This document shows positions 2,889-6,085 of a stretch of 6,085 bases of DNA, piece after piece. Position numbers and translations under genes: made by a program. Source of the DNA: a virus. The stretch covers positions 1 to 6,085 of the IMG/VR virus record IMGVR_UViG_3300045988_000909. The stretch is one strand, 5' to 3'. The first letter of the stretch is position 1. Every line of letters begins with the position of its first letter. The notes beneath the pieces are model-generated. The model had not been told where the DNA came from, ran no database searches, and worked only from the letters and a program-made list of their open reading frames with translations.

Positions 2889-4571
2889 TTAGACCATACG
2901 GTTAAATATATTATTAGCGTCATTCAATTTCTTATGCTTAATCATATTACGACAGAATGTTGCACTACGGATCCTGAGTTGGTCAAGAAGTTGAAACGTT
3001 TCACTCGAAGAGGACGAGATGGAATCGATTTCAGCACCGCTCTGCGGTAAGACGAACATACTATCCGATATATCGGGGAATTGGGCTCGGACCATATACG
3101 AATCTCGTAAATTTTGATAGTCTTTCTTCTTTTCATACTCTAGTCCAGTTTTGATGATAAATATAATACGACTGGCATAAGAGTCAAGATTACCACCGAT
3201 GGAAGGCAAATGCCAATTTCTGAGGAATTTACTGACATAAAGGAAAAGCCGATATAATTTATTAACATAAGATTCAGTATCGAAGTCAACAGAACTGAAA
3301 CAGCACCTAGTAGAACACCTAGAAGCATGTAAAATAATTTCATCTTCATTTGTTAAATCGTTATTGGTTAACATAAGGTACTTATAATAAGCACGAACAA
3401 TAGAAAGAATAGAATCGGAATCATAAGCTACGATACCGAATCTTGCAATTCTTTTTGGCGCGTCTGCAACAGCTCGAATAATTCTAGCAATCGCAGTAGC
3501 ATCGTCATAGCGAGCACTTGAGAATCGGGGGAGTAAGGTACGGATATACGACATGGGAGGAGTTGATTTAACACTAATCCCGTTGAAGTTATAGATTCGT
3601 CCATTAATGACAGAATCGATTTTTTGCTCAATCGCGTGATAGACGTCTTCACCTTCTTCAAAAACCTCGCCTTTTTCAAAAAATCCAAGAGATGCTCTTT
3701 GGCGGGGTCTAAACGCGCGGCATGATCTATATAATAGGGGAGCAGAGCTAAGGCTGTTAACGTAACTCGCAACGTACGATGAAGCTCCACCGCGGGCAAT
3801 CTGGAAATCTGAACGACCGAGTTTCCAACTCTTATCATGACACTGTCGTAATACTTCTGAGACTTCTTTCGAGTTCGTGAATAATAAGATATGGTAATGC
3901 GGGCGGAAATGGACTGGTCCATATTCACCCACAGCGTAGAAATGTAGCGTTTCATAAGAACCTAAAACTTGAGATAAATGTTTACGTAATCGTTTGATAT
4001 AGTTCTGAACATCAACATAATTTAAGAAGGGTATAAGGTTATTAATACCGTATTTTTCAGCAACGGGATATACCGAATTGTCGACGGCCTGCGTTTTACG
4101 GATAAAACTACGAATAGCATCCATACTAAGAAACCAATTGTCCTTAACAGGAACATATTCCTTGATTCCACGGTCAAACGGCACCGTGCCTTGAACCTGC
4201 GTGAAGAATATATGACGCAATAGGGAAGAATCCTCAGGTTGATACTCAGAAACAGGGATATAAGAGTGGCGTTCATACCCAAATACTTTATCTCCTGAAA
4301 TGCTTAAAGTGTCTTCATATTCACTATGCAGAACCTCGCAATTCATCAAAGGAACATGCTCATTATCATAAGTAAGCGTTACAAAATAAGAGTACTTGAA
4401 AGCACTTCCTGCGGTCCTCACGCGCATAGACGCTTTTTTAGCACGCTTATGAATACAGTAATCACATTGACCACAATCTACAGCAATACGATGGCCTGTG
4501 TAACGGTTAGTTATATAAGAACGATTCTGACAATGGTCAACAGCCTTAAGCAAATCAGGAGAATATTTCAT
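2889..4571 (-). CDS. VP4: Rolling-circle replication initiator (HUH endonuclease; Microviridae VP4 / phiX174 gpA family), 560 aa
   Basis: All three superfamily-I RCR motifs are present in order. Motif 1 is FVTLTY (4368..4385). Motif 2 is the HUH element HYHILLF (H-Y-H at 3891..3899, checked against the nucleotides). Motif 3 is YVASYVNS, with two catalytic-type Tyr at 3774..3776 and 3762..3764; the phiX174 gpA di-tyrosine motif is YVAKYVNK as I recall it. An N-terminal Cys/His cluster (DHC...H...CGQCDYCIH) is also present. ATG is at 4569..4571 and TAA at 2889..2891. Confidence 0.93.
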   Translation of the reverse strand: MKYSPDLLKAVDHCQNRSYITNRYTGHRIAVDCGQCDYCIHKRAKKASMRVRTAGSAFKYSYFVTLTYDNEHVPLMNCEVLHSEYEDTLSISGDKVFGYERHSYIPVSEYQPEDSSLLRHIFFTQVQGTVPFDRGIKEYVPVKDNWFLSMDAIRSFIRKTQAVDNSVYPVAEKYGINNLIPFLNYVDVQNYIKRLRKHLSQVLGSYETLHFYAVGEYGPVHFRPHYHILLFTNSKEVSEVLRQCHDKSWKLGRSDFQIARGGASSYVASYVNSLSSAPLLYRSCRAFRPRQRASLGFFEKGEVFEEGEDVYHAIEQKIDSVINGRIYNFNGISVKSTPPMSYIRTLLPRFSSARYDDATAIARIIRAVADAPKRIARFGIVAYDSDSILSIVRAYYKYLMLTNNDLTNEDEIILHASRCSTRCCFSSVDFDTESYVNKLYRLFLYVSKFLRNWHLPSIGGNLDSYASRIIFIIKTGLEYEKKKDYQNLRDSYMVRAQFPDISDSMFVLPQSGAEIDSISSSSSETFQLLDQLRIRSATFCRNMIKHKKLNDANNIFNRMV

Positions 4572-4573
4572 AA

Positions 4574-4882
4574 TTATTTTCGTTTATCAATCACCTGGCG
4601 ACGATCGCGCGGGCCAAATGAAATATGAATAAATGTAGGATATAATATCAATTGATCAAACACATGAGTACTTTCCGAATAATTATGGATATGATTGAGC
4701 AACCGATTATAAGTAGTAGAACCATACGGTTTAATATCAATAGCTTCTCCAACCAAATGTTGAGAATTAGGGACACCACCAGCAGCTTTATTTTCAGTAA
4801 TAGAACGTTTAGCGCTTGTCACCGAAAAATGCAGGTTAAAACACAATAAATGTTCAAGGAAATTCATAAGGGTAGTATTCAT
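4574..4882 (-). CDS. Small zinc metallopeptidase of the M15 (VanY / M15_3-like, LAS fold) family; candidate peptidoglycan hydrolase (endolysin-like), 102 aa
   Basis: The sequence VTSAKRSITENKAAGGVPNSQHLVGEAIDI...FIHISF carries the M15 signature SxHxxGxAxD (H42 at 4757..4759, D49 at 4736..4738). A distal His (H86 at 4625..4627) completes an H-x6-D...H zinc triad. The upstream R-x4-N element is typical of M15_3 enzymes. ATG at 4880..4882 overlaps the upstream stop (ATGA). TAA at 4574..4576 lies 2 nt before the VP4 ATG. Confidence 0.75.
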   Translation of the reverse strand: MNTTLMNFLEHLLCFNLHFSVTSAKRSITENKAAGGVPNSQHLVGEAIDIKPYGSTTYNRLLNHIHNYSESTHVFDQLILYPTFIHISFGPRDRRQVIDKRK

Positions 4883-4962
4883 AATCCAATAGCGTTAAGA
4901 ATATAACCTAAGGCGGCAGACACAGCACCAATTACAATTTTCCAAATATTGTTACTTTTCAT
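4879..4962 (-). CDS. Tiny single-pass membrane peptide, 27 aa (MKSNNIWKIVIGAVSAALGYILNAIGL); possible holin-like partner of the peptidase
   Basis: ATG is at 4960..4962. Stop TGA at 4879..4881 overlaps the peptidase ATG at 4880..4882 (ATGA). A short charged N-terminus is followed by about 20 hydrophobic residues. The same frame is open back to ATG 5065..5067, giving a 62-aa two-hydrophobic-segment version (MVLEIILSEFLRWVLLLLWIQLKKK...). That longer version would overlap the 85-aa ORF by 116 nt. The true start is unresolved. Confidence 0.4.
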   Translation of the reverse strand: MKSNNIWKIVIGAVSAALGYILNAIGL

Positions 4963-5209
4963 CGGATTGAGTTTTAAGTTCAACAAAATTATCTTCTTCT
5001 TTAATTGAATCCACAATAACAATAAGACCCATCGGAGAAACTCGCTCAGAATAATTTCCAAGACCATCTAAAGAATTGACAATATAAGGCGGCATAACAT
5101 CACGACCAGTTTGTTTTTCTTTAAGAGAAATAATAAATTTCAACATAATTACAAAGTTTAAAATGTTAATGAATAATGAGTTAGATTCTACAGGGGCAAA
5201 GGAAAGCAT
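4952..5209 (-). CDS. Hypothetical protein, 85 aa, with N-terminal hydrophobic (membrane-anchor-like) segment
   Basis: This is the first ORF downstream of the only large intergenic region. ATG at 5207..5209 is preceded on the coding strand by an A-rich tract (ttattcaaaaaaaATG). The segment NSLFINILNFVIMLKFIISL is hydrophobic and is followed by a mixed-composition 50-aa tail. An alternative internal ATG at 5144..5146 would give 64 aa. I recognise no family. Confidence 0.5.
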   Translation of the reverse strand: MLSFAPVESNSLFINILNFVIMLKFIISLKEKQTGRDVMPPYIVNSLDGLGNYSERVSPMGLIVIVDSIKEEDNFVELKTQSDEK

Positions 5210-5294
5210 TTTTTTTGAATAAACAAAATATTTCAGAGTTTTTTTTGTTCTACGGTTAGAGTGTGAGTTGTGCGTTTATAGACAAGAGGGATCG

Positions 5295-5317
5295 AATTTG
5301 AGATGATAACTCAAATT
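5295..5317. other. Perfect 8-bp inverted repeat / hairpin (aatttgag-atgataa-ctcaaatt)
   Basis: 5295..5302 is the exact reverse complement of 5310..5317, with a 7-nt loop. A further G:T pair is possible at 5294/5318. Confidence 0.7.
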
Positions 5318-5369
5318 TCCTTCGGACACAACTAGGGGCTTCGCTTGAATAACATAGGGGTATAGGCAC

Positions 5370-5391
5370 GGCAAGTCAAGTCTGTCTTGCC
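5370..5391. other. Hairpin ggcaag-(10 nt)-cttgcc, optionally extended by outer pairing gcacg (5366..5370) / cgtgc (5404..5408)
   Basis: 5370..5375 is the exact reverse complement of 5386..5391. The outer 5-bp complement was seen by eye. Confidence 0.55.
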
Positions 5392-5408
5392 TTTGCGCAC
5401 CGACGTGC

Positions 5409-5432
5409 TAAAATACCGGAGCGGAACGCTCC
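5409..5432 (-). terminator. Candidate intrinsic terminator downstream of VP2 (weak)
   Basis: The minus strand reads GGAGCG-TTC-CGCTCC (5432..5418), a 6-bp GC-rich stem with a 3-nt loop, followed by GGTATTTTAG (5417..5408). The U-tract is short (4 U), so this is tentative. Confidence 0.3.
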
Positions 5433-5498
5433 TCTAAAGAAGTCGCTCCGCTCCATTTTATATCAGGCCCTACGCGGGCGGCGGGTGTATATCGCTCC
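5418..5498. repeat. Cluster of CGCTCC hexamers (4 direct copies, 1 inverted)
   Basis: CGCTCC occurs at 5427..5432, 5444..5449, 5449..5454 (overlapping by one base) and 5493..5498. The inverted copy GGAGCG is at 5418..5423. A manual scan of all 'cgct' occurrences elsewhere in the window found no other CGCTCC. Confidence 0.7.
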
Positions 5499-5516
5499 AG
5501 AGCCGCGATGGGCTCT
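5499..5516. other. Hairpin agagcc-gcgatg-ggctct
   Basis: 5499..5504 is the exact reverse complement of 5511..5516. A competing pairing is atcgc (5491..5495) with gcgat (5505..5509). Confidence 0.55.
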
Positions 5517-5581
5517 TAGTCCTGAAGTATAGAACGTAGAATGTAGACATATTCTTCTATCACAGGGGAAAGGAGAATAGA

Positions 5582-6085
5582 TTAGTAGCCAATACCATTG
5601 GCTGAAGATGGATTGCCACGAGAACTAAACTTAAGCTTAGGCATGTTCTGGAAAATCTTAGTACCATAATCCACAGCATTACGAAGACCATAGGAATCAA
5701 AGTCTTTCTTAGCGTTTCCGGCAGACCACTTGTAATAATCACGGAGAGCTTTGTCCTTAGAATACTGCATATTCTTGCGATTATTCACATTTTTGTAATC
5801 CCATAGAGAATCATAATACTGCGTATAGTAAGCCATATTCGTAGCAGACATCAGAGCATCAGCAGTACCAGAAGCTATCTTGTTAGAAATCTTCTGGCCT
5901 TGTGTCTGAGCAGACATCTGAATAGCGCGCTGAAGTTCAGTTTGAACCTGTTTCTCAGTTAAAGCACCTTGCTGCACAAGATTATATAGATACTGAGATT
6001 TTATAAACAAATCTGCTTGTTGTTGAGTATCCATATACTTGTTCAAGATAGCTTGAGAATCAGACTGTAAATAAACCTGGGTCGT
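5582..6085 (-). CDS. VP2: Minor capsid / DNA pilot protein (VP2-like), C-terminal part (6031..6085 duplicates 1..55)
   Basis: The track ORF 5582..6046 starts with an 'M' that is really an internal TTG (Leu) codon at 6044..6046. The frame stays open upstream to the window end (..TTQVYLQSDSQAILNKYMDTQQQ..). Stop TAA is at 5582..5584. The sequence is Gln/Tyr/Lys-rich, typical of pilot proteins. Confidence 0.8.
   Translation of the reverse strand, partial: TTQVYLQSDSQAILNKYMDTQQQADLFIKSQYLYNLVQQGALTEKQVQTELQRAIQMSAQTQGQKISNKIASGTADALMSATNMAYYTQYYDSLWDYKNVNNRKNMQYSKDKALRDYYKWSAGNAKKDFDSYGLRNAVDYGTKIFQNMPKLKFSSRGNPSSANGIGY
6031..6085. repeat. Terminal direct repeat, copy 2 (circular-genome assembly overlap)
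   Basis: Identical to 1..55. This implies a 6030-nt circular unit. Confidence 0.95.

Follow-up and report, generated by a model that had tools for sequence, protein, structure and literature searches.

The window analyzed here, the whole stretch of 6,085 nucleotides, is a complete circular microvirus genome: bases 1-55 are identical to bases 6031-6085, and the unit length is 6,030 nt. The minus strand carries every gene of the window, in the order VP1, a 177-aa scaffold-like open reading frame (ORF), a pilot-protein gene that spans the circular junction, a structured intergenic region, a 64-codon ORF, a 102-aa ORF and Rep. The major capsid protein VP1 occupies 1127-2872, and the replication initiator Rep/VP4 occupies 2889..4571 and matches Pfam REP_ORF2-G2P (E 2.3e-16) and PHROG 942 (E 5.7e-35). 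The window as a whole shows ~89% identity to several 'Dulem virus' genomes from lemur faeces and to one human Microvirus sp., all of which carry a 'peptidase' annotation, and the virus is a gut Alpavirinae-like microvirus.

A serially overlapping run of genes leads from the 64-codon ORF (ORF64), which comes first, through an unannotated 27-codon membrane-peptide gene (4879..4962, minus strand) and the 102-codon peptidase gene to Rep. ORF64 (4952..5146, minus strand; beginning MLKFIISLKEKQTGRDV) is conserved and its function is unassigned; it was found in all relatives and has 2,577 homologues. It matched no Pfam, PHROG or NCBIfam family, and its AF2 model was unusable (pLDDT 41.6). The NCBIfam models likewise gave no match to the peptide or the peptidase, and an Rfam search of the window returned no match.

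The 102-aa ORF (4574..4882, minus strand) translates as MNTTLMNFLEHLLCFNLHFSVTSAKRSITENKAAGGVPNSQHLVGEAIDIKPYGSTTYNRLLNHIHNYSESTHVFDQLILYPTFIHISFGPRDRRQVIDKRK and encodes a short-form M15A/Peptidase_M15_3 zinc peptidase, assigned by Pfam, PHROG and fold. Counting residues, we located R26-x4-N31, S40-Q-H42-L-V-G45-E-A47-I-D49 (SQHLVGEAID) and F84-I85-H86 (FIHISF), in agreement with the first-pass annotation, which had listed H42-x6-D49, H86 and R26-x4-N31 and had placed the ORF directly before Rep. The gene terminates with its stop codon at 4574 and Rep begins with its ATG at 4571, which leaves the 2-nt spacer that this annotation described. The M15/LAS membership that it had proposed is also borne out. 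In a profile search against the M15 families the protein matched Pfam PF08291 Peptidase_M15_3 with E 1.6e-9 and 38.3 bits, above the gathering score of 23.2; it matched PHROG 894 'endolysin' with E 2.8e-14; and the top fold neighbor of its model was an M15A enzyme, 1LBU. We therefore regard membership in the M15A family as very close to certain.

We found 1,931 homologues of the peptidase at E<=1e-3 in a large protein collection. The best are 91% identical and lie on contigs of ~6 kb, and one of them is named 'MAG TPA: peptidase [Microviridae sp.]'. In a full scan with HMMER, 511 relatives were recovered from 1.84 billion cluster representatives. Among them the ~100-aa short forms are a small group; the bulk are 120-150 aa long, and their alignment to the protein begins near their residue 50. 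Similarly, only positions 38-107 of the 108 in the Peptidase_M15_3 profile are matched, and the N-terminal ~37 positions, with the F-x-x-x-E segment, are not. By these alignments the 102-aa peptidase is classed as an N-terminally truncated variant of the domain, in which ~35 of the usual N-terminal residues are missing; this fits the minimal size attributed to it in the first-pass annotation. The 102-aa form may define the minimal active M15A core, and might be of interest for enzybiotic engineering.

The protein gave a compact, confident AF2 model (pLDDT 95.2, pTM 0.86) from an alignment of 90 sequences. [quoted passage not shown] Further PDB neighbors were VanY, LdcB, the RB49 L-Ala-D-Glu peptidase and Hedgehog N-domains, as fits the Hedgehog/DD-peptidase (LAS) fold, and among predicted viral structures (BFVD) the best matches, down to 2e-16, were microvirus peptidases and 'Peptidase M15A, C-terminal' proteins. 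A search of the PDB with the single protein sequence was marginal (1LBU, E 0.14), and a profile was needed for a clear match; with the profile of 90 relatives, 1LBU was found at E 7.7e-13. Although 1LBU is thus the best match by both structure and profile, the 102-aa enzyme differs from it in having no N-terminal peptidoglycan-binding domain and in carrying FxH for HxH, and the TM-score is just 0.55 over the 77 columns.

In the pairwise alignment to 1LBU, H42 corresponds to H154, D49 to D161 and R26 to R138. In the Hedgehog alignments H86 falls on the second His of the HIH motif, which we take to be the third zinc ligand of Sonic hedgehog (Shh). Accordingly, H42, D49 and H86 are the predicted zinc ligands, and R26 is the predicted arginine for the substrate carboxylate. 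H42, D49 and R26 are invariant both in the 90 diverse relatives and in 75 distinct 102-codon alleles; across these alleles S23, N31, S40, D76, Q77, F84, H86 and S88 never vary either. F84 occupies the place of the general-base His195 of 1LBU, and S88 that of D106 in the phage enzyme LysPM1, a proposed proton-transfer residue. The pN/pS ratio of the gene over the 75 alleles is 0.28 in its own frame; the two alternative frames give 1.05 and 1.63. The peptidase gene is therefore real and under selection, and a decaying pseudogene was rejected on the grounds of this selection and the residue invariance. The 102-aa product is almost certainly an active metallopeptidase.

Peptidases of this kind are well known from microviruses. 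In 11 genomes of human-associated Gokushovirinae and Alpavirinae, Roux et al. (2012) found genes for M15_3 peptidases that had been acquired horizontally at least twice; they proposed that the enzyme is an endolysin that dissolves the wall as infection ends (PMC3394797). Kirchberger et al. (2022) described peptidases as recurrent lysis-associated accessory genes of microviruses that pass between microvirus families by recombination (PMC9239249). An M15 metallopeptidase is also present in most of the marine Occultatumvirinae (PMC11499846), and an 'M15A family metallopeptidase' is encoded by phiHBP1, the first microvirus of Bacteroides to be cultured (PMC13064476). The first-pass annotation had considered such a gene atypical for so small an ssDNA genome and only sporadically noted. 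Given the 2012 report, its 11 genomes, the recurrence of the gene as an accessory and the 'peptidase' label in GenBank relatives, it is instead ordinary for gut microviruses. A microvirus M15 peptidase as a candidate lysis enzyme is thus already known and routinely annotated, and the peptidase finding by itself changes nothing; its value lies in its surroundings. What appears to be new is the coupled gene for a 27-residue peptide, the existence of peptidase-less relatives that keep this peptide, and the N-terminal truncation of the enzyme. The gut Microviridae M15_3 peptidases (Dulem, bajarodmic, mar) share with ours the Pfam family, the kind of virus, the habitat, the proposed endolysin role and the evidence of mobility; here, however, the enzyme has the truncated 102-aa form and always lies between a gene for a 27-30-aa membrane peptide and Rep.

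Three single-domain M15A phage enzymes have been shown by experiment to be muralytic, namely the ST79 M15A peptidase, Spp64 and LysPM1 (PMC5025407, PMC13461873). They come from Burkholderia phage ST79 (149 aa), Shewanella phage Spp001 and Proteus phage Homer (116 aa), respectively. Like the 102-aa enzyme, they consist of the Peptidase_M15_3 domain only, with SxHxxGxAxD, (W/F)xH and the R138-equivalent arginine, and have neither a wall-binding domain nor a signal peptide. The (W/F)xH variant is the rule in all three (PMC13461873, PMC5025407). The 102-aa enzyme is 14-47 residues shorter at its N-terminus and has S88 for D106 of LysPM1; moreover, its host phage is a T=1 ssDNA virus, whereas the three enzymes are from tailed phages with a holin and spanin cassette. 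Among homologues from tailed phages, dozens are annotated as endolysins, including those of Stenotrophomonas, Xanthomonas and Burkholderia phages at 39-47% identity. Because of the homology to the three characterized endolysins and the intact site, we consider that the peptidase is quite probably muralytic, and a role in lysis is likely. The first-pass annotation had anticipated both, and the analogy with these enzymes speaks for them. It had also noted the absence of an export signal and of a wall-binding domain, and this holds: the Peptidase_M15_3 domain stands alone, and the protein has no hydrophobic stretch fit for a signal peptide or a transmembrane (TM) helix (maximum Kyte-Doolittle mean 0.89 over 19 residues).

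Directly upstream of the peptidase lies the 27-codon gene, the product of which, MKSNNIWKIVIGAVSAALGYILNAIGL, has a cationic N-terminus (K2, K8), W7, and then a 19-residue G/A/S-rich helix with a mean Kyte-Doolittle value of 2.0, giving one predicted TM domain. Its ATG overlaps the last codons of ORF64, and its TGA stop overlaps the peptidase ATG as ATGA at 4879-4882, so that a TM ORF both adjoins and overlaps the start of the peptidase. The first-pass annotation had asked how the enzyme reaches the periplasm and had not spotted this gene, which is a concrete candidate answer. The ORF and its ATGA overlap are kept in 13 of 13 close genomes. The peptide is nearly invariant in these genomes, many of the nucleotide differences being synonymous, whereas their peptidases fall to 65-83% identity. 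The pN/pS ratio of the peptide among the 13 genomes is 0.15 in its own frame as compared with 1.2 and 5.9 in the other two, and in a larger sample it was 0.13, again with values >1 in the other frames.

We also looked for the peptide in front of more divergent peptidases, covering Dulem 238, 226, 243, 241 and 257, mar56 and mar62, four Logan contigs and two IMG/VR contigs. Every divergent short-form peptidase examined, down to 40% identity, was preceded at the same position by a homologous peptide of 26-30 aa, which ended either with a 4-nt overlap or 0 to 12 nt before the peptidase start. The peptides fall into two sequence types, ...W[KR]IIIGAVSAALGY[IV]LN..GL and ...K.[NK]W[IL].A[IV]ISA[IV]VAALT[SA]LLSNL. 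Scanning IMG/VR with a degenerate DNA pattern for the first type, we obtained at least 119 loci, 118 of them on microvirus contigs of ~5.4-9.4 kb. Among the matches listed, the peptide stop overlaps an ORF matching the M15 profile in 106 of the 118 contigs, with 102 aa as the commonest length, and in three further contigs the peptidase lies at the contig end. For the second type, the DNA-pattern scan added two microviruses that are arranged in this way, gave one chance match, and found no such arrangement in tailed phages. Taken together, the 27-codon peptide is very probably a real gene.

This gene is annotated in no GenBank record examined, and among the papers searched we found none describing such a membrane-peptide gene. 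In the GenBank records of Dulem 238, 226 and 243 the peptidase CDS is wrongly extended upstream over the peptide gene in another frame; one automated gene call does exist for a 30-aa homologue of the peptide. The gap is systematic, in that ORFs under 30 codons are missed. When twelve variants of the peptide were compared with PHROG and Pfam, holin families came up repeatedly, but only below threshold (phrog_443, 689, 785 and Pfam Phage_holin_3_3; E 0.01-0.13). These are matches which we treat as a hint and do not count as homology, as they may reflect only TM composition.

We considered whether the G/A/S-rich helix and the peptidase form a single SAR endolysin, and rejected this reading. The helix is a separate ORF with its own stop, and only a -1 frameshift could join the two; on inspection by eye, the junction sequences differ between genomes and show no conserved slippery heptamer. 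The peptidase ATG is conserved in all of the close genomes but one (L004), which has GTG.

The converse of the pairing does not hold. The short-form peptidase was always accompanied by the peptide in the samples examined, but nine of the 118 contigs among the matches listed, from several samples, keep ORF64, the peptide and Rep and have no peptidase (L037, L070, L076, L087, L095, L097, L109, L118 and L126). A six-frame search of these nine contigs found no M15 match (best E 0.2), and in eight of them the peptide has the C-terminus ...SAIGV. The difference is a clean indel, in which an unrelated AT-rich spacer of ~54 nt takes the place of the 309-nt peptidase gene between the peptide gene and Rep, with good identity on both sides. 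In a rough neighbor-joining tree of VP1, the peptidase-less genomes are scattered among the peptidase-bearing ones. In addition, comparison with Dulem virus 242 revealed a trough in the peptidase gene, with 73-78% nucleotide identity against 90-96% in both flanks; at the protein level, identity is 67.6% for the peptidase and 90.7% for VP1. Given this divergence trough and the presence/absence pattern among close relatives, the peptidase behaves as an exchangeable cassette, in line with the horizontally acquired module envisaged in the first-pass annotation. Since the peptide is kept without the peptidase, the peptidase is dispensable and the peptide has a function independent of it. The persistence of the peptide in the nine peptidase-less genomes also argues that lysis has no strict need of the peptidase.

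Based on these observations, we propose, with a probability of about 50%, that the peptidase is an accessory endolysin coupled to a holin-like membrane peptide that gives it access to murein. The peptidase would be made in the cytoplasm without an export signal. The peptide would be translated first, and the peptidase would be coupled to it in a fixed ratio through the ATGA stop/start overlap. The peptide would then insert N-in, as its two N-terminal lysines suggest, as a single-pass helix of the inner membrane, where it would most likely oligomerize through its small-residue (G/A/S) face. The resulting holin-like lesion would let the folded 11.7-kDa enzyme reach the murein, the peptide stems of which the peptidase would cut at the end of infection. 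As to the peptide's own part in this scheme, that of an access factor for the peptidase is plausible, although we would stop slightly short of even odds. More tentatively, the single-helix peptide of 27-30 residues might be the conserved core of the lysis of Bacteroidales by gut Alpavirinae-like microviruses, with the truncated M15A peptidase as a recombining plug-in cassette, translationally subordinate to the peptide, that can be lost while the phage stays viable.

If this last reading is true, the peptide would be a previously unrecognized lysis effector and, whether holin-like or single-gene, smaller than any other known. No lysis mechanism has yet been established for microviruses outside the phiX174 group, although these phages rank with the commonest ssDNA viruses in the gut of mammals. 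The peptide gene and the polymorphism of the peptidase lead to a simple, testable two-gene hypothesis of lysis.

In its layout, the locus resembles the holin-endolysin cassettes of tailed phages, including those with pinholins, in which a small membrane-protein gene lies upstream of, and overlaps, the gene for a cytoplasmic muralytic enzyme; the TM helix rich in small residues is a further likeness to holins and pinholins. The lack of any hydrophobic segment in the peptidase and the conservation of the peptide gene directly upstream speak for a holin-like role. On the other hand, the peptide ends with its helix and thus has one TM domain but not the charged hydrophilic C-terminal domain that is a hallmark of holins. 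It also differs from the cassettes in its length of 27-30 aa with one helix, in having no antiholin dual start and no accompanying spanin, in its persistence without the enzyme in nine genomes and in the sub-threshold level of its holin-family matches. To our knowledge, characterized holins are far longer than, and unlike, a 27-aa peptide without a charged C-terminal tail. No outer-membrane disruptor (spanin or disruptin) was evident in the genome.

The main rival to this model, although rather unlikely, is that the peptide is a primary, self-sufficient lysis protein, as are phiX174 E and the short TM lysis proteins of ssRNA phages, and that the peptidase is an optional booster cassette that provides, for example, faster lysis or lysis of non-growing cells. 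The retention of the peptide under the same constraint in the nine genomes without any peptidase would be expected in this case, and no other candidate lysis gene is visible in these peptidase-less genomes of ~5.6-6.1 kb. Constraint is stronger on the peptide than on the peptidase (pN/pS 0.13 vs 0.28), and peptidase alleles are exchanged by recombination while the peptide is nearly invariant. Protein E, an MraY inhibitor, is likewise a short microvirus-encoded protein whose functional part is one N-terminal TM helix, and enzyme-free lysis of this kind would fit the peptidase-less relatives. However, the peptide shows no sequence similarity to E, it has no proline or other E feature, and it points to no target. 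Its gene is not embedded in another, as it shares only a few nucleotides with a neighbor at each end, and it is coupled to a peptidase in >90% of the genomes among the matches listed. If the peptide merely blocked wall synthesis, the cytoplasmic enzyme would have no access to murein before lysis, and the conserved translational coupling would therefore be hard to explain. The missing proline and the overlap with neighboring ORFs at the ends only also speak against an E-type gene as such. The idea of single-gene lysis and the holin-like model overlap if the peptide permeabilizes the membrane.

Other explanations concern the enzyme itself. It seems very unlikely that the signal-less peptidase acts in the cytoplasm on peptidoglycan precursors, by a VanX- or VanY-like cleavage of D-Ala-D-Ala or of the pentapeptide that would starve cross-linking and cause lysis with no export. 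The closest solved structure, 1LBU, is indeed a D-Ala-D-Ala carboxypeptidase, VanY and VanX belong to the same clan, and the enzyme has no export signal; but the three characterized M15A phage enzymes degrade sacculi or permeabilized cells from outside and work with holins, and the coupled membrane peptide would be left unexplained. Even less probable is a role in entry, with the peptidase carried by the virion to breach the murein so that DNA can be delivered; for this idea, raised in the first-pass annotation, we found no support. Close relatives infect without the peptidase, its gene is grouped with non-structural genes and coupled to the membrane peptide, and its 102 aa include no capsid-targeting extension, although tailed phages do have the M15A C-terminal domain in tail or baseplate proteins and in one tape-measure protein. 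We know of no microvirus that packages a murein-opening entry peptidase. A decaying or non-catalytic remnant, in which the N-terminal third of the domain has been lost, is hardly credible. The limited Pfam coverage (38-107 of 108) and the F in place of the 1LBU general-base His could be read in this way, but the length of 102 aa is conserved in most alleles, the site residues are all invariant at a pN/pS of 0.28, the model is compact and confident at pLDDT 95, and F/W-x-H is the norm in active phage M15A enzymes.

The pairing of peptide and peptidase is specific to the short-form lineage. The M15 gene of phiHBP1 encodes a full-length protein of 134 aa with 40% identity to the 102-aa enzyme, lies downstream of Rep and, unlike the short-form genes, is preceded by a non-membrane ORF of 54 aa. 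This different location, with no membrane peptide before the gene, argues against a universal pairing.

Finally, we examined the likely host. VP1 of the window is 34% identical over its full length to VP1 of the Bacteroides fragilis phage phiHBP1 (E 2e-106). A first VP1 scan of the genome collection gave no match, whereas an alignment-based scan detected integrated VP1 relatives at 25-37% identity in contigs of Prevotella, Paraprevotella, Xylanibacter and Bacteroidales, which also contain integrated Rep relatives. None of the integrated relatives carries the peptidase, so that the host assignment is one of relatedness, resting also on the VP1 identity to phiHBP1. A sigma-70 promoter scan was uninformative, as would be expected for a Bacteroidales host. 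Judged from these sequence relationships, the host is likely to be a member of the Bacteroidales.

We compared the window with the locus of Dulem virus 242 and found that the peptidase gene (4574-4882) lies in a local divergence trough, where nucleotide identity falls to 73-78% against 90-96% in its flanks. As judged from this alignment, the local trough between flanks of 90-96% identity indicates that the peptidase allele was replaced by recombination. A second break relative to the same virus falls in the part of the Rep gene that encodes its C-terminal region (2926-3225); Rep is 560 aa long in the window versus 607 aa in Dulem virus 242. In nine close relatives from IMG/VR (L037, L070, L076, L087, L095, L097, L109, L118 and L126), no M15 peptidase was present anywhere in the genome. 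All nine retain ORF64, the membrane peptide and Rep, and in place of the 309-nt peptidase gene they have only some 54 nt of AT-rich spacer.

The membrane-peptide gene, an unannotated minus-strand gene of 27 codons (4879-4962) that encodes a single-helix peptide, has a stop codon overlapping the peptidase start (ATGA). Purifying selection acts on this gene more strongly than on the peptidase gene, and it precedes every short-form (N-terminally truncated) microvirus M15 gene that we examined. In Dulem viruses 238, 226 and 243, the GenBank CDS annotated as peptidase or 'hypothetical protein' (locus positions 638-1012) begins 63 nt further upstream, and this extension crosses the membrane-peptide gene in a different frame; the conserved peptidase start in these three loci is the ATG at locus position 701. 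The peptidases of Dulem viruses 243 and 241 are labeled only as 'hypothetical protein' in GenBank. The start of the membrane-peptide gene is in turn overlapped by the 3' end of ORF64 (4952-5146, minus strand), a conserved ORF of 64 codons beginning MLKFIISLKEKQTGRDV..., which has 2,577 homologues and matches no known family. Starting ORF64 at its earliest ATG (5209) would give a product of 85 aa, which is probably an overextension, since the relatives begin at MLKF or MQKF. The AF2 model of ORF64 was unusable (pLDDT 41.6).

The record has an exact terminal redundancy of 55 nt (1-55 = 6031-6085) and represents a circular genome with a unit length of 6,030 nt. Its cut point falls inside the pilot-protein gene, which spans the junction on the minus strand (673 down to 1, then 6030 to 5582). 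Between this gene and ORF64 lies a structured non-coding stretch of about 300 nt (5255-5565, minus strand), which is GC-rich (49% versus about 40% elsewhere), contains the hairpin GGAGCGGAGCGACTTCTTTAGAGGAGCGTTCCGCTCC and is predicted to fold strongly as ssDNA (MFE -51.3 kcal/mol, z -4.8). It is the best-conserved part of the genome relative to Dulem virus 242 (92-98% identity), and an Rfam search of it gave no match. This stretch may be an origin or a complementary-strand priming region.

Relatives of VP1 and Rep, with VP1 identities of 25-37%, were also found in eight loci (L028, L029 and L031-L036) from Prevotella, Paraprevotella, Xylanibacter and Bacteroidales. The contigs that hold them range from about 17 kb to 2.8 Mb and are assigned to bacterial genomes and MAGs, and the location of the relatives inside such contigs suggests prophages; the fetched flanks of these loci contained no M15 gene. 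Two further loci, L027 and L030, on short contigs from Saccharospirillum and Marinomonas assemblies, look like co-assembled fragments of free microviruses.
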